A stretch of DNA of 5,273 bases, taken from IMG/VR virus record IMGVR_UViG_2636415418_000002; one strand, written 5' to 3'. A model generated the notes under the pieces. The model saw only the letters and a list, made by a program, of their open reading frames with translations. It was not told the origin of the DNA and searched no databases. The position numbers were made by a program, and so were the translations under genes. Each line of letters begins with the position of its first letter. The first letter of the stretch is position 1. This DNA comes from a virus (taxonomy: Duplodnaviria; Heunggongvirae; Uroviricota; Caudoviricetes). This document shows, piece by piece, positions 1,229-4,657 of the stretch.

Positions 1229-2014
1229 ATGAGTACTGCACTCGCAACGCTGGCAGGGAAGCTGGCTGAACGTGTCGGCATGGATTCTGTCGACCCACAG
1301 GAACTGATCACCACTCTTCGCCAGACGGCATTTAAAGGTGATGCCAGCGATGCGCAGTTCATCGCATTGTTGATCGTCGCCAACCAGTACGGCCTTAATC
1401 CGTGGACGAAAGAAATTTACGCCTTCCCTGATAAGCAGAACGGCATCGTTCCGGTGGTGGGCGTTGATGGCTGGTCCCGCATCATCAATGAAAACCAGCA
1501 GTTTGATGGCATGGACTTTGAGCAGGACAATGAATCCTGTACATGCCGGATTTACCGCAAGGACCGTAATCATCCGATCTGCGTTACCGAATGGATGGAT
1601 GAATGCCGCCGCGAACCATTCAAAACTCGCGAAGGCAGAGAAATCACGGGGCCGTGGCAGTCGCATCCCAAACGGATGTTACGGCATAAAGCCATGATTC
1701 AGTGTGCCCGTCTGGCCTTCGGATTTGCTGGTATCTATGACAAGGATGAAGCCGAGCGCATTGTCGAAAATACCGCATACACTGCAGAACGTCAGCCGGA
1801 ACGCGACATCACTCCGGTTAACGATGAAACCATGCAGGAGATTAACACTCTGCTGATTGCCCTGGATAAAACATGGGATGACGACTTATTGCCGCTCTGT
1901 TCCCAGATATTTCGCCGCGACATTCGAGCATCGTCAGAACTGACACAGGCCGAAGCAGTGAAAGCTCTTGGATTCCTGAAACAGAAAGCCACTGAGCAGA
2001 AGGTGGCAGCATGA
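1229..2014 (+). CDS. bet: Bet (Red-beta) single-strand annealing protein, 261 aa
   Basis: The translation [66 protein letters not shown]... matches lambda Bet as I recall it, with the same 261-aa length. The stop overlaps the exo start as ATGA, as in lambda. Confidence 0.95.
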
Positions 2015-2691
2015 CACCGGACATTATCCTGCAGCGTACCGGGATCGACGTGAGAGCTGTCGAACAGGGGGATGATGCGTGGCACAAATTACGGCTCGGC
2101 GTCATCACCGCTTCAGAGGTTCACAATGTGATAGCAAAACCCCGCTCCGGAAAGAAATGGCCTGACATGAAAATGTCCTACTTCCACACCCTGCTTGCCG
2201 AGGTTTGCACCGGTGTGGCTCCGGAAGTTAACGCTAAGGCGCTGGCCTGGGGAAAACAGTACGAGAACGACGCCAGAGCCCTCTTTGAGTTCACTTCCGG
2301 CGTGAATGTTATTGAATCCCCGATCATCTATCGCGACGAAAGTATGCGCACCGCCTGCTCTCCCGATGGTTTATGCAGTGACGGCAATGGCCTTGAGCTG
2401 AAATGCCCGTTTACCTCCCGGGATTTCATGAAGTTCCGGCTCGGTGGTTTCGAGGCCATAAAGTCGGCTTACATGGCCCAGGTGCAGTACAGCATGTGGG
2501 TGACGCGAAAAGATGCCTGGTACTTTGCCAACTATGACCCGCGTATGAAGCGTGAAGGCCTGCATTATGTCGTGGTTGAGCGGGATGAAAAGTACATGGC
2601 GAGTTTTGACGAGATGGTGCCGGAGTTCATCGAAAAAATGGACGAGGCACTGGCTGAAATTGGTTTTGTATTTGGGGAGCAATGGCGATGA
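2011..2691 (+). CDS. exo: Exo (Red-alpha) 5'-3' dsDNA exonuclease, 226 aa
   Basis: The translation [40 protein letters not shown]... matches lambda exonuclease as I recall it, with the same 226-aa length. The gam-bet-exo order is the lambda Red arrangement. Confidence 0.95.
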
Positions 2692-2846
2692 CGCATCCTC
2701 ACGATAATATCCGGGTAGGCGCGATCACTTTCATCTACTCCGTTACAAAGCGAGGCTGGGTATTTCCCGGCCTTTCTGTTATCAGAAATCCACTGAAAGC
2801 ACAGCGGCTGGCTGAGGAGATAAATAATAAACGGGGGGCTGTATGA
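2688..2846 (+). CDS. Small hypothetical protein (52 aa), positional equivalent of lambda orf60a
   Basis: Not in the ORF track. Hand translation gives [52 protein letters not shown]. Its ATG overlaps the exo stop (ATGA at 2688-2691) and its stop overlaps the next gene's ATG (ATGA at 2843-2846). Lambda likewise has a small ORF overlapping the exo stop. Confidence 0.5.
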
Positions 2847-3400
2847 CTGATTTCACCGGAAGCAATACTCCTGCCGAACATCGCGACAGCTGGCGCACAC
2901 CACCAGAGATTTTTGCTGCGCTTAATGCAGAGTTCGTTTTTCAACTTGATGCTGCAGCCAGCGAAAAAAACCGACTATGTCGGCTTTTTATCTCACAGGA
3001 GCAGAACACATTAACCACTTCATGGCCTGAAGCAATGGGATATGCCTCTGGTTATGTCTGGTTGAATCCACCATACAGCAATATTTCCCCTTTTGTGAAA
3101 AAGGCAGCCACTGAAAACAAATTCAGTAGTGTGGGATGTGTAATGTTATTGCCTGCTGACACATCTGTCGGATGGTTTCATGAAGCGATACAAACCGCCA
3201 GTGAGGTCAGATTCATCACGGCAGGACGACTGGCATTTATTAACCCACTCACCGGGAAACCCGTCAGTGGAAATAATAAAGGCTCGATGCTCATTATCTG
3301 GCACCCATACCCCCGTACACACTGCCACTTTACGACCGTTGATCGTGGAGAGTTGATGGCGTTCGGCTCAAGGATTCTTGCCCGTCGGGAGGCTGCATGA
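2843..3400 (+). CDS. Putative phage DNA N6-adenine methyltransferase (small Dam-like orphan MTase), 185 aa
   Basis: Contains the (D/N)PPY catalytic motif in WLNPPYSN, and an N-terminal WRTPPEIFAALNAEFVFQLDAAAS segment that resembles the WxTP...LDxAA signature I associate with the phage 'Dam' methyltransferase family (Pfam PF05869, from memory). No adjacent restriction endonuclease candidate is visible. Confidence 0.75.
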   Translation: MTDFTGSNTPAEHRDSWRTPPEIFAALNAEFVFQLDAAASEKNRLCRLFISQEQNTLTTSWPEAMGYASGYVWLNPPYSNISPFVKKAATENKFSSVGCVMLLPADTSVGWFHEAIQTASEVRFITAGRLAFINPLTGKPVSGNNKGSMLIIWHPYPRTHCHFTTVDRGELMAFGSRILARREAA

Positions 3401-3480
3401 CAACCACGGAATGCATTTTTCTGGCAGCGGGCTTCATATTCTGTGTGCTTATGCTTGCCGACATGGGACTTGTTCAATGA
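3397..3480 (+). CDS. 27-aa hydrophobic micro-protein (single predicted TM helix)
   Basis: Not in the ORF track. Hand translation gives MTTTECIFLAAGFIFCVLMLADMGLVQ*. A strong SD, GGGAGG (3386-3391), lies 5 nt before the ATG. The ATG overlaps the MTase stop and the stop overlaps the orf71 ATG, both as ATGA. Codons (ctg, gcg, ggc, gcc, gac) are better here than in the alternative long frame. Confidence 0.45.
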   Translation: MTTTECIFLAAGFIFCVLMLADMGLVQ

Positions 3481-3692
3481 CACCTCAGCAGGAAAACGCC
3501 CTTCGCAGCATTGCCCGTCAGGCTAATTCTGAAATCAAAAAAGCCAGACAGCAGTTTCCGGATAAAAACGTCGATGACATTTGCCGTAGCGTACTGAAGA
3601 AGCACCGCGAAACGGTAACGCTGATGGGATTCACACCGACTCATTTAAGCCTGGCGATCGGCATGTTAAACGGCGTCTTTAAGGAGCGATGA
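3477..3692 (+). CDS. Hypothetical protein, 71 aa
   Basis: ATG at 3477 overlaps the orf27 stop. Translation is MTPQQENALRSIARQANSEIKKARQQFPDKNVDDICRSVLKKHRETVTLMGFTPTHLSLAIGMLNGVFKER*. The track's 3378 start is a TTG and the in-frame ATG at 3411 lacks an SD and would overlap orf27. Product not recognised. Confidence 0.55.
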   Translation: MTPQQENALRSIARQANSEIKKARQQFPDKNVDDICRSVLKKHRETVTLMGFTPTHLSLAIGMLNGVFKER

Positions 3693-3784
3693 ACATGAAA
3701 AGCAAAATCATCAGGGAGCTACAGGCTCCTTTTTTATTATTCGCATTCACCCTCAAGCGTATTAACCAACAATTCAGGGATTAA
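3689..3784 (+). CDS. Possible 31-aa micro-ORF (uncertain: it contains a terminator-like hairpin)
   Basis: Not in the ORF track. Hand translation gives MNMKSKIIRELQAPFLLFAFTLKRINQQFRD*. Its ATG (3689-3691) overlaps the orf71 stop (3690-3692) as ATGA. A hairpin plus T-tract inside it is the competing explanation for this stretch. Confidence 0.3.
   Translation: MNMKSKIIRELQAPFLLFAFTLKRINQQFRD
3714..3741 (+). terminator. Terminator-like hairpin (GGAGC-tacag-GCTCC) followed by TTTTTTATTATT
   Basis: Seen directly: a 5-bp stem (3715-3719 pairing with 3725-3729), extendable by one G-U pair, then six T at 3730-3735. The stem is short, so this is a weak intrinsic terminator at best. It overlaps the orf31 candidate. 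Confidence 0.3.
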
Positions 3785-3790
3785 TGGAAG

Positions 3791-4009
3791 ATGGCAGACA
3801 TCATTGATTCAGCATCAGAAATCGAAGAATTACAGCGCAATACAGCAATAAAAATGCGTCGTCTGAACCACCAGGTTATATCTGCCACTCATTGTTGTGA
3901 GTGTGGCGATCCCATAGATGAACGAAGACGCCTGGCCGTTCAGGGTTGTCGGACTTGTGCAAGTTGCCAGGAGGAGATCGAACTTAAGAACAAACAATGG
4001 GGATTGTGA
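3791..4009 (+). CDS. TraR/DksA-family C4 zinc-finger protein (probable RNA-polymerase secondary-channel binder), 72 aa
   Basis: The segment CCECGDPIDERRRLAVQGCRTCASCQ shows the CxxC-G-x-P-I-x-E-x-R-R ... CxxC pattern characteristic of TraR/DksA. Its size matches TraR-like proteins of F plasmid and lambdoid phages. Only a weak SD (AGGGA) lies 10 nt upstream. Confidence 0.75.
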   Translation: MADIIDSASEIEELQRNTAIKMRRLNHQVISATHCCECGDPIDERRRLAVQGCRTCASCQEEIELKNKQWGL

Positions 4010-4056: not shown

Positions 4057-4335
4057 ATGTTCAGAATCATTTTTCCTAACACCTGGTACGTCGACCACCA
4101 CGGCACTCCCTGCAAAATCCTGCGTTCTACCCACAACAAAGTTCACTACATCCGAAAAGGCAGAACATGTATCGCCAGCATGTTCCGCTTTAATCATGAC
4201 TTTGAACCTGTGAATAAAGCTGATGCAGATCGGATAGCAGAAGAGATCGAAACGGCAGAACACATTAAGAAGTTACGTGACATGCGTTCAAAAAGCAGAG
4301 GTAACCATGGAATCATACAGCCTCACACTCGATGA
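4057..4335 (+). CDS. Hypothetical protein, 92 aa
   Basis: ATG at 4057 is preceded by GAGG (4046-4049) with a 7-nt spacer. Translation begins MFRIIFPNTWYVDHHGTPCKILRSTHNKVHYIRKGRTCIASMFRFNHDFEPVNKADADRIAEEIETAEHIKKLRDMRSKSRG.... Its 3' end overlaps the xis start by 29 nt. Product not recognised. Confidence 0.5.
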   Translation: MFRIIFPNTWYVDHHGTPCKILRSTHNKVHYIRKGRTCIASMFRFNHDFEPVNKADADRIAEEIETAEHIKKLRDMRSKSRGNHGIIQPHTR

Positions 4336-4657
4336 GGCCTGTCAGTTTCTCAAGATATCCAGACCTACCGCTACCAACTGGATACGAACAGGCCGCCTAC
4401 AGGCAACACGCAAAGACCCCACTAAACTAAAATCTCCTTACCTCACAACACGACAAGCCTGCATTGCGGCTCTTCAGTCTCCGCTGCATACTGTCCAGGT
4501 GAGCGCGGGTGATGGCATAACAGAGGAAAGAAAATGTCACTCTTCCGCAGAGGTGAAATATGGTACGCCAGTTTCACATTGCCGAACGGTAAAAGATTTA
4601 AACAGTCTCTTGGAACAAAGGACAAAAGGCAGGCGACAGAACTCCATGACAAGCTAA
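4307..4657 (+). CDS. xis: Excisionase, P22-type (116 aa)
   Basis: The translation [38 protein letters not shown]... has an excisionase-type winged-helix/HTH N-terminus and resembles phage P22 Xis as I recall it. GAGGT (4298-4302) lies 4 nt before the ATG. It sits immediately upstream of, and overlapping, int. The track start at 4277 has no SD. Confidence 0.8.

Follow-up and report, generated by a model that had tools for sequence, protein, structure and literature searches.

Gene content of the exo-xis segment

The segment that holds the junctions comes from a lambda-like E. coli prophage and covers the exo-xis part of its early-left (pL) operon. The window, by which we mean the whole 5,273-nucleotide stretch of DNA analyzed, is 98 to 99% identical to E. 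coli prophages and to phage PhiR30_1, and it is collinear with lambda and the Stx phages. The genes follow the order gam, bet, exo, DUF1317, Dam-type methyltransferase (MTase), orf27, orf71, orf31, and traR (Table 1). The lambda synteny exo > orf60a > orf63 > orf61 > orf73 is retained at high nucleotide identity, the exception being the MTase cassette that occupies the place of orf63. Among these genes, bet, exo, DUF1317, the MTase gene, and orf71 are clearly coding. The next operon gene after orf31 is traR, and the two do not overlap. A search of Rfam returned no match.

Table 1. Features of the window from bet to traR
Feature	Position	Strand	Basis and remarks
bet (RecT-like annealase)	1229..2014	+	Named Bet in closest relatives; TGA stop at 2012-2014 forms junction J1
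exo (lambda exonuclease)	2011..2691	+	Start overlaps bet stop (J1); relatives' annotation
orf52 (DUF1317, lambda orf60a family)	2688..2846	+	Pfam PF07026, E = 2e-34; residues 1-52 align to profile positions 1-52
Terminator-like hairpin t1	2752..2774	+	Inside orf52; matches predicted t1 of lambda/Phi24B
Poly-G tract (G6)	2833..2838	+	Length sets reading frame of orf52 C terminus
Phage N6-adenine DNA methyltransferase cassette, 185 aa, NPPY motif	2843..3400	+	PF05869, E = 1.8e-56, 190.9 bits (cutoff, 28.1); TIGR01712, 168 bits (cutoff, 97)
orf27, candidate 27-aa single-pass membrane peptide (MTTTECIFLAAGFIFCVLMLADMGLVQ)	3397..3480	+	Overlaps at both ends
orf71 (lambda orf61 family, phrog_303)	3477..3692	+	PGAP 71-aa form
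AAGGAG Shine-Dalgarno	3681..3686	+	8 nt before ATG 3695; 2 nt before ATG 3689
orf31 (31 aa from ATG 3689; 29 aa from ATG 3695)	3689..3784	+	J6 at start
t2 intrinsic-terminator-like hairpin and T-run	3713..3737	+	Inside orf31; pattern scan and fold
7-codon ORF MEDGRHH	3784..3807	+	Read from sequence
TraR/DksA-type zinc-finger protein (lambda orf73 family)	3791..4009	+	PF01258, E = 1.2e-8; relatives' annotation

The DUF1317 gene is cut to 52 aa by the downstream cassette. It has a second in-frame ATG at 2682; PGAP takes the one at 2688, and the Shine-Dalgarno (SD) sequence GGGGAG lies 8 nt before 2688 versus only 2 nt before 2682. The hairpin within this gene is presumably lambda tL3. Its sequence is identical to that of t1 of lambda and Phi24B (PMC4195576).

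The profile scores of the cassette product, together with the LNPPYS stretch in its translation, identify it as an N6-adenine methyltransferase. Identity to lambda extends through the ATG at the left joint and restarts at the ATGA at the right joint. Judging from these joints, the cassette has replaced lambda orf63 (DUF1382) exactly from ATG to ATGA/stop. A homolog 70 to 71% identical is found in the Enterobacter phage vB_EclS_CobraSix (CobraSix); it has the same type of ending, cgggaggccgcATGA, so that it natively terminates in GGGAGG..ATGA serving the next gene. Cassettes here are swapped exactly at start and stop codons, which would preserve the ribosome hand-over.

Stop/start overlaps and their conservation

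The initial annotation described six consecutive ATGA overlaps, at positions 2011, 2688, 2843, 3397, 3477, and 3689 (here J1 to J6). All six are exact: at each junction, the stop and start codons overlap on one strand, with TGA closing the upstream ORF in frame and ATG opening the next one. It had also been argued that chance would rarely place an in-frame ATG on each stop. The ATGA tetramer by itself is not rare, since the plus strand carries 38 copies versus about 24 expected from base composition; in lambda, A precedes 17 of 37 TGA stops. Likewise, an ATGA of the J6 type that merely opens a 31-codon ORF is not improbable. With random spacers, only 0.7% of trials produced an ORF that links two fixed genes through an ATGA on either side, rising to 2.1% for the true spacing of 76 nt; chance is therefore an unlikely origin for orf27.

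The unbroken run, taken initially to imply tight translational coupling, is nothing special as such; lambdoid phages have ATGA as their default junction. In lambda, 4-nt overlaps occur at 15 of 63 same-strand junctions (24%), 14 of them ATGA and 1 GTGA, and the ATGA overlap is the commonest junction type. CobraSix has six successive ATGA junctions after exo, all between annotated genes. The chain of six is ordinary packing of early genes in lambda-like phages.

Conservation of the junctions in relatives is split. ATGA is kept at J1 (2011-2014) in 228/228 loci, at J2 (2688-2691) in 289/289, and at J4 (3397-3400) in all 124 distinct contexts; in 37 of the 289 J2 loci, exo stops one codon earlier at a TAA, giving a TAATG overlap. 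J5 (3477-3480) is ATGA in 115 of the 124 contexts and GTGA in the other 9. J1 and J2, between bet and exo and between exo and DUF1317, are already annotated in lambda. At J6 (3689-3692), ATGA (66 contexts), GTGA (52), and other tetramers (6) coexist. J3 (2843-2846) is also variable, and the length of the poly-G tract determines whether it is an ATGA or an 8-nt overlap. Among MTase-bearing loci, 10 have G5 and 4 have G6, most of the relatives that carry the MTase have the 8-nt overlap, and PGAP annotations include both layouts. As a link of the chain, J3 is an incidental outcome of the cassette swap and of poly-G length. Overall, the junctions are real gene boundaries in a tightly packed operon, four of the six being conserved, while J3 and J6 are haplotype specific and the literal run of six ATGAs is confined to this haplotype.

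A candidate small membrane peptide gene between the methyltransferase gene and orf71

orf27 is preceded by the strongest SD in the window (GGGAGG, -10.3 kcal/mol; compare AAGGTGG, -7.3 kcal/mol, upstream of exo). It is intact at 27 codons in 203/203 copies of the locus, which encode 8 peptide variants. The best 19-residue segment has a mean Kyte-Doolittle value of 2.33, as expected for a single-pass hydrophobic segment (about 19 or more residues above threshold).

Variation in the orf27 frame is skewed toward synonymous changes among the more common variants: those found in at least 3 haplotypes comprise 9 synonymous and 4 nonsynonymous changes, and the rarer ones 1 and 11. This frequency-spectrum signal (Fisher P = 0.0036; Mann-Whitney U P = 0.0003) is drawn from closely related, nonindependent haplotypes, all at least 95% identical, and the synonymous bias is seen in the orf27 frame only. 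A simple count gave 9 synonymous changes of 16 versus 4.4 expected in a first sample (P = 0.012) and 10 of 25 versus 6.7 expected in an enlarged one, which is not significant (P = 0.10). The coding inference hence leans on the frequency-spectrum test, not on the simple synonymous count.

The exact orf27 sequence is called "hypothetical protein" on 981 contigs. It is unannotated in the curated lambda, Stx phage, and E. coli RefSeq/PGAP records examined, and it has no family in Pfam, PHROGs, or NCBIfam. A tblastn search with orf27 returned only matches at least 92% identical, with no divergent homologs, and a blastn search for distant relatives only matches at least 95% identical. Two proteins of 428 aa that fell into the orf27 cluster are glycosyltransferase-like and unrelated, an artifact of clustering. 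A contig scan yielded nothing but lambda DNA in assemblies of unrelated species, which looks like contamination, and so carries no taxonomic information. Prophages with a 250-aa cassette have no orf27, which is therefore dispensable. In a review of lambda ribosome profiling (PMC8614690), the extra peptides listed for this block are only one of 7 and one of 31 aa, with none of 27 aa.

The initial annotation held that the tiny ORFs are genuinely translated. For orf27, this is borne out to the extent that the ORF looks coding: its overlaps are kept, its length is constant, its variant spectrum is synonymous biased, its SD is the strongest in the window, and an SD-less orf71 follows it. These features support orf27 as a genuine small membrane peptide gene that would be coupled to orf71. 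A 27-residue gene left out of curated records thus looks genuine, which is mildly new.

The start and identity of orf71

The orf71 start is ATG or GTG in every context, and the GTG allele is synonymous in orf27. The C3475T variant turns J5 into TAATG, which still overlaps. The SD of orf71 itself reaches only -3.9 kcal/mol, a background level, and we found no significant RNA fold masking the start (z = +0.43), yet the protein is clearly under purifying selection. In prophages that carry the 250-aa cassette and lack orf27 (L094 type), orf71 begins from the same Met with a GAGG SD in front.

No divergent orf71 homologs suitable for a proper dN/dS analysis were found, and apparently distant proteins (51 to 73% identity) are products of indel-ridden assemblies or of an IS-disrupted copy. 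An identity as ZapA, the name that NCBI gives to orf71, or as a homeodomain protein is unsupported, with no ZapA match in Pfam or NCBIfam at an E value of ≤0.01 and no PDB match with an E value of <1 in a fold search with the orf71/93-aa model. In lambda, the equivalent of orf71 is truncated by an extra A (A7, versus A6 in the window).

orf31 and the t2 hairpin

J6 had been taken as a coupling start, and here the initial annotation is not supported. ATG 3689 is GTG in 72 of 127 haplotypes, and this A/G change is synonymous in orf71, whereas the ATGA at 3695 is kept in 120 of 124 contexts. The conserved start of orf31 is ATG 3695 with its own AAGGAG; in most relatives the SD reads AAGGAA, a change synonymous in orf71. 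The G3691T change removes the stop of orf71, and termination then moves to the following ATGA, at 3695-3698.

Genuine translation of orf31 receives a mixed answer. A record of phage 434 carries orf31 as a CDS of 29 aa, and that of mEp332 as one of 31 aa. The review reports, from lambda ribosome profiling, a 31-aa peptide named "orf2313" and a 7-aa peptide in this block (PMC8614690). No other ORF of 31 codons lies on that strand in the conserved block of lambda, so orf31 matches orf2313 by elimination. The ORF itself shows no amino acid constraint, with codon positions at 6:6:9 and no synonymous bias (Fisher P = 0.40). Starting at the final base of the orf31 stop (TAATG), the 7-codon ORF MEDGRHH extends over the start of traR; its lambda ortholog, MKDGRHH, shares its 7-codon length with two other ORFs of the conserved block and is a candidate for the reported 7-aa peptide.

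The t2 element is a predicted Rho-independent terminator, a GC-containing hairpin followed by a U-run in a pattern scan and a minimum free energy (MFE) fold, with a fold z-score of -1.56. It is listed for both lambda and Phi24B (PMC4195576). The T3720C variant converts a U.G pair of the hairpin into C-G.

Probable translational coupling and alternative explanations

We regard the following account as likely. The exo-xis stretch would be transcribed from pL as one long mRNA in which neighboring frames abut via stop/start overlaps. SDs inside the 3' ends of upstream genes would help initiation at bet, exo, DUF1317, the MTase gene, and orf27, and terminating ribosomes could also reinitiate at the overlapping ATG. 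orf27 would be a real 27-residue single-pass membrane peptide. Because orf71 has no SD and its start is always ATG or GTG, most of its translation would come from ribosomes that have only just finished orf27 (termination-reinitiation); the N-terminal gene models of the 93-residue "ZapA" and of lambda orf61 would therefore be wrong. Finally, orf31 would be translated from ATG 3695 on its own AAGGAG, 2 to 6 nt after the orf71 stop, and ribosomes would cross the t2 hairpin while making a peptide whose sequence is free of selection. We infer coupling here only from junction geometry and SD strength. Programmed frameshifting that would fuse orf63 to orf27 or orf27 to orf71 was also considered and discarded, as inspection alone revealed no slippery heptamer at either junction.

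Two other explanations were considered. According to one, orf27 is a chance out-of-frame ORF and the real gene is a 93-residue form beginning at ATG 3411, or at a site farther upstream like that of lambda orf61, the "cell division protein ZapA" of RefSeq. In RefSeq, Stx phages and lambda are annotated with this long form, phrog_303 is modeled on about 93 to 101 residues, the 93-aa sequence is called on about 1,000 contigs, and the review of lambda ribosome profiling has no 27-aa peptide. Yet in the 93-aa frame none of the 7 variants common to at least 5 haplotypes and only 1 of the 13 common to at least 3 are synonymous. A stop codon directly upstream of ATG 3411 in 78 of 127 haplotypes rules out the lambda-type start; ATG 3411 has no SD (-2.6 kcal/mol) and is AAG in strain FDAARGOS_1250. 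AlphaFold gives the extension low confidence (pLDDT 40 to 52 for residues 1 to 20 of the 93-aa form, 73 to 91 for residues 21 to 80), and the review excludes residues 1 to 23 from the fold (PMC8614690). In addition, PGAP picks the 71-aa form, the same Met, without the extension, is the start in the L094 prophage and in two variant proteins, P0061 and P0074, and searches gave neither a Pfam ZapA match nor a significant fold match. Taken together, the evidence argues against the 93-residue model, which we consider improbable. According to the other explanation, the genes are densely packed without coupling, each on its own SD, the ATGAs stem from TGA stops preceded by A, and orf31 is noncoding, open terminator sequence. 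The SDs before J1 to J4 and before ATG 3695, the free variation of J3 and J6 in near-identical relatives, and the frequency of A before TGA stops in lambda all agree with it, as do the features of orf31, namely its flat codon positions, frequent radical substitutions (L to P, R to M), and a conserved hairpin inside. It accounts poorly for an SD-less orf71 whose protein is under purifying selection, for J4 and J5 overlaps that were never lost in 124 contexts, where mutations keep the start or yield GTGA or TAATG, for the relocation of the G3691T stop onto the ATGA at 3695-3698, and for the 31-aa peptide reportedly seen in lambda. We judge it unlikely, somewhat less so than the 93-residue form.

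A further possibility assigns orf31 a regulatory, leader-like role: by analogy with pyrBI, ribosomes coming from orf71 would cross t2 and suppress termination, linking upstream translation to transcription of traR/orf73 and beyond. orf31 covers both the t2 hairpin and the T-run, its peptide is unconstrained and yet the ORF remains open with a conserved SD and ATG, and in L094 the T-run carries a change that is silent in the orf31 frame. By reverse transcription-quantitative PCR, mRNA is lower downstream of t2 in lambda and shows no drop in Phi24B, with t2 identical in both (PMC4195576); in lambda, a frameshift makes orf61 end about 125 nt earlier, while in Phi24B an intact orf71 ends 2 nt ahead of the orf31 ATG. 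This association is purely correlative, however, and the authors of that study favor a promoter. Moreover, pL transcripts undergo N antitermination and would be expected to pass t2 unaffected, the fold z-score of t2 is only modest, the MFE fold revealed no alternative antiterminator structure, and we identified no pause signals. We give this role little credence.

Implications

The chain of overlaps alone teaches nothing new, being standard packing of a lambdoid early operon; what is of use is a corrected gene model for a phage region that is among the best studied. A broader reading is quite conceivable, though we lean slightly against it as a whole: orf27 would be a membrane peptide gene conserved in lambda and its E. 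coli relatives, missed by the curated annotations examined, between orf63 and orf61 and ATGA coupled at both ends; orf61/"ZapA" would be mis-started, its true 71-residue product being frameshifted in laboratory lambda; and ribosomes passing from orf71 to orf31 may melt t2. If so, translation of the block would adjust how far transcription proceeds into orf73, ea22, xis, and int. The exo-xis block has a part in the lysis-lysogeny decision and in Shiga toxin prophage induction. Published deletion and overexpression work on "orf61" used a frame whose first 22 codons overlap the probably real orf27; such constructs would therefore disrupt or coexpress a small membrane peptide and break the coupling relay, which could confound phenotypes assigned to orf61.

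Comparison with known systems

Lambda has the same gene order, its DNA is at least 95% identical in two stretches, bet to DUF1317 and orf27 to traR, and its bet/exo and exo/orf60a ATGA overlaps and its t1 and t2 hairpins are identical to those of the window. It differs in carrying orf63 (DUF1382) where the window has the Dam-type methyltransferase, in a DUF1317 protein of 60 rather than 52 aa, and in an annotated orf61 that is a frameshifted hybrid, whereas orf71 is intact in the window; ea22 of lambda is absent from the window, which has DUF4222 after traR instead. CobraSix resembles the window in its six-junction run after exo and in an MTase 3' end that encodes GGGAGG and ATGA for the next gene. 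Its remaining genes are unrelated, it has no orf27-orf71 module, and every ORF is annotated.

In attenuators of the pyrBI/pyrE type, a leader ORF is translated through a terminator. orf31 similarly spans a terminator, so that a closely following ribosome would block the hairpin; unlike those leaders, it has no UTP-sensitive pause sites, the operon is N-antiterminated, and regulation here is only proposed. Coupling by stop/start overlap (termination-reinitiation) is established for pairs such as trpE-trpD and trpB-trpA. In contrast to the trp pairs, coupling at our locus is proposed from sequence alone, and good SDs are present at most of the other junctions, where initiation may thus be predominantly de novo. 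The geometry is the same, ATGA, GTGA, or TAATG, and the SD-less orf71 sits directly on the upstream stop. Membrane peptides shorter than 50 aa are a class known from ribosome profiling studies of phages and bacteria. Although orf27 is a prediction from its DNA, with no Pfam, PHROGs, or NCBIfam family, it resembles them in its 27-aa length, its one hydrophobic helix, its overlapping operon neighbors, and its having been missed by curated pipelines.

Stop/start overlaps in the exo-xis stretch

The segment corresponds to the exo-xis part of the leftward early (pL) operon. Prophages in 228 complete E. coli genomes match it at 98-99% identity, as does phage PhiR30_1, and its gene order is collinear with that of lambda and the Stx phages. 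Copies of the region turned up in roughly 4,400 E. coli genomes. The six consecutive ATGA junctions described in the initial annotation are present: J1 (bet/exo, 2011-2014), J2 (exo/orf52, 2688-2691), J3 (orf52/methyltransferase, 2843-2846), J4 (methyltransferase/orf27, 3397-3400), J5 (orf27/orf71, 3477-3480), and J6 (orf71/orf31, 3689-3692). At each of them, TGA is the stop of the upstream ORF and ATG the start of the next. The gene after orf31 encodes a TraR/DksA zinc finger protein (lambda orf73). Family searches of Pfam, PHROGs, and NCBIfam returned no match for orf27 or orf31.

Genes and small ORFs of the overlapping series
Feature	Position	Strand	Remarks
bet	1229-2014	+	TGA stop in J1
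exo	2011-2691	+	J1 to J2
orf52	2688-2846	+	DUF1317 (lambda orf60a)
Methyltransferase	2843-3400	+	phage N6-adenine enzyme, PF05869, TIGR01712
orf27	3397-3480	+	J4 to J5
orf71	3477-3692	+	phrog_303 (lambda orf61 family)
orf31	3689-3784	+	opens at J6
7-codon ORF (MEDGRHH)	3784-3807	+	TAATG on last base of orf31 stop; overlaps traR start 3791

We compared these junctions across 333 homologous loci from IMG/VR, metagenomes, and phage records, which yielded 127 indel-free haplotypes of 3397-3810. Conservation in relatives held for J1, J2, J4, and J5 (the last as ATGA or GTGA), but J3 and J6 proved variable. ATGA occurs at J1 in 228/228 loci, and the J2 4-mer in 289/289; in 37 of the latter, exo stops one codon earlier at a TAA, giving a TAATG overlap. 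The spacing from the SD sequence GGGGAG is 8 nt to ATG 2688 and 2 nt to the alternative ATG 2682, and the DUF1317 Pfam model begins at the Met of ATG 2688.

Several features outside the junctions were recorded. A strong terminator-like hairpin (2752-2774) within the DUF1317 coding sequence has the same sequence as t1 predicted in lambda and Phi24B; it is probably the classical terminator tL3, which Red plasmids retain. Another strong hairpin of this type (167-190) follows the first partial ORF, and an AT-rich, ORF-poor stretch (240-400) lies upstream of the kil-like gene. With ATG 4534 as the int start, the integrase ORF would share >100 nt with an HTH (excisionase-like) ORF at 4307-4657; PGAP chose a later start for int. 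The lambda-family segment is also matched exactly in assemblies of Shewanella, Bradyrhizobium, Pseudomonas, Paenibacillus, Kitasatospora, and others (loci L216-L233). For several, the contig is about 48.4-48.5 kb long and has low coverage, and the matches look like contamination of public genomes with lambda control DNA.

Cassette exchange at J3 and J4

Cassette exchange produced J3 as a by-product. On the left, identity to lambda extends through the orf63 ATG, this codon included; from there the sequence is that of the methyltransferase, whose second codon happens to start with A. Most relatives carry orf63 in its place, with a 28-nt overlap. A poly-G tract just upstream of J3 (2833-2838) varies in length (G5, G6, and up to G9 in some loci), altering the C terminus of DUF1317 and the kind of overlap it makes with the gene that follows, and is a possible slippage-prone site. 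Among 14 methyltransferase-bearing loci, 10 have G5 and thus an 8-nt overlap, and only 4 have G6 and the ATGA seen here.

J4, where lambda homology restarts exactly at the ATGA, is invariant: ATGA is found in 124/124 distinct contexts, with either orf63 or the methyltransferase upstream. Since the methyltransferase homologue of Enterobacter phage CobraSix natively ends ...cgggaggccgcATGA, the SD-plus-ATGA tail belongs to the cassette. A prophage locus (L094, 2241-2993) and five others like it carry, in place of orf63, orf27, and the opening codons of orf71, an alternative cassette of 250 residues for which no Pfam match is recorded; it too opens with an ATGA on the DUF1317 stop.

Coding potential of orf27

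The initial annotation held that the tiny ORFs are genuinely translated. The 27 codons of orf27 are intact in 203/203 locus copies examined, with eight mostly conservative peptide variants. Its SD sequence, GGGAGG (-10.3 kcal/mol), is the strongest in the window, and a hydropathy of 2.33 is typical of a single transmembrane helix, as predicted for the peptide. The exact sequence is called a "hypothetical protein" on 981 contigs and is annotated in none of the curated E. coli prophage, lambda, Stx-phage, and other phage records examined.

Variants of the orf27 frame found in at least 3 haplotypes comprise 9 synonymous and 4 nonsynonymous changes, versus 1 and 11 among rarer ones (Fisher p=0.0036, Mann-Whitney p=0.0003; the haplotypes are mutually related). 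The other two frames over orf27 have no synonymous-biased spectrum. The bona fide gene orf71, used as a control, shows the same pattern strongly; 80 loci were picked for an identical orf71 protein, which biases this control but not the orf27 test. In a first, smaller sample, 9/16 orf27 changes were synonymous versus 4.4 expected (P=0.012), and once many metagenomic singletons had been added in an enlarged sample, the count was a nonsignificant 10/25 versus 6.7 expected (P=0.10). Because this raw count is nonsignificant, the evidence from sequence comparison that orf27 is a coding gene is moderate and not conclusive.

Start of orf71 and the lambda orf61 gene model

Of the contexts at J5, 115 have ATGA and 9 have GTGA, an A-to-G substitution that is synonymous in orf27; a rare C3475T turns the junction into TAATG, and the overlap is retained. 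RefSeq viral records instead carry a 93-residue "ZapA" that begins at the equivalent of ATG 3411, and lambda orf61 starts further upstream. This longer model is improbable. ATG 3411 has no SD sequence, is AAG in one strain, and directly follows a stop in 78/127 haplotypes. Variation in the long frame is synonymous in 0/7 cases among variants present in at least 5 haplotypes and in only 1/13 among those in at least 3. AlphaFold pLDDT for the long form is 40-52 over the first 20 residues versus 73-91 for residues 21-80, and a published modelling review left residues 1-23 out of the fold (PMC8614690). Moreover, prophages with the 250-residue cassette lack orf27, and their protein begins at the same Met as orf71, seven bases past the cassette stop and with GAGG upstream. 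The PGAP call is also 71 residues.

The start of orf71 at 3477 has only a background-level SD sequence (-3.9 kcal/mol); therefore, the simplest mechanism is re-initiation, in which ribosomes finishing orf27 would resume at 3477 and translate orf71. The A-run at 3537-3542 is A6 in the window and nearly all relatives versus A7 in reference lambda (L004, about 3365-3371), where it frameshifts orf71 into a 29-residue product. Because A7 truncates orf71, annotated lambda orf61 (61 aa) appears to be a hybrid that joins a spurious 5' extension to a frameshifted, truncated fragment. Neither profile nor fold searches matched orf71 (3477-3692) to ZapA, so the NCBI name "cell division protein ZapA" looks unsupported. 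In one E. coli genome (L093, about 2499-3017), an IS-type transposase ORF lies inside orf71 and creates a chimeric 66-residue product; a database search offered this locus as a distant homologue, which was ruled out, as it is an IS-disrupted copy.

orf31 and the 7-codon ORF

J6 reads ATGA in 66 contexts, GTGA in 52, and otherwise in 6, and the ATGA/GTGA change is synonymous in orf71 (CGA to CGG). A second ATGA (3695-3698) is kept in 120/124 contexts, and its TGA replaces the orf71 stop when G3691T removes the latter. The conserved orf31 start is ATG 3695, 8 nt past AAGGAG (AAGGAA in most relatives). The orf31 peptide shows no constraint (codon positions 6:6:9, Fisher p=0.40), and L to P, R to M, and T to I are among its common variants. 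A phage 434 record lists orf31 as a CDS of 29 aa, and mEp332 as one of 31 aa.

According to a review, lambda ribosome profiling revealed additional peptides in this conserved block, 7 and 31 residues long (PMC8614690). The lambda block holds exactly one 31-codon ORF, the orf31 orthologue, directly followed by a 7-codon ORF (MKDGRHH, MEDGRHH here) that is a candidate for the 7-aa peptide. Going by the review's account, orf31 is probably translated, incidentally or for a sequence-independent reason.

orf31 also encloses t2, a conserved terminator-like hairpin. By RT-qPCR, mRNA downstream of t2 was reduced in lambda and not in Phi24B, with t2 identical in both (PMC4195576). In Phi24B, orf71 is intact and stops 2 nt before the orf31 ATG; lambda has the frameshifted form. 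Since the two phages differ in orf71 and share t2, ribosome hand-over into orf31 might counteract t2; this idea is speculative and purely correlative, and N antitermination speaks against it.

Comparison with other lambdoid operons

The initial annotation read the run as tight translational coupling that chance would rarely produce. This reading is supported in part: it fits orf27/orf71, with moderate evidence for orf27, and was known before for bet/exo/orf60a, but J3 is incidental and J6 was misplaced. Random spacers seldom (0.7-2%) yield an ORF that, like orf27, connects two fixed genes through an ATGA at either end, but chance readily supplies an A before a TGA stop, as in 17/37 lambda cases. 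The modest novelty lies in the argument for orf27 and in the revised gene model for orf61/orf71.

The overlap architecture itself is ordinary for lambdoid phages. In the lambda RefSeq record, 15/63 same-strand junctions are 4-nt overlaps (14 ATGA, 1 GTGA), bet/exo and exo/orf60a among them. CobraSix, like the window, has six ATGA junctions in succession after exo, all between annotated genes. Given these frequencies in lambda and CobraSix, the unbroken run is the normal style of such operons and no anomaly.
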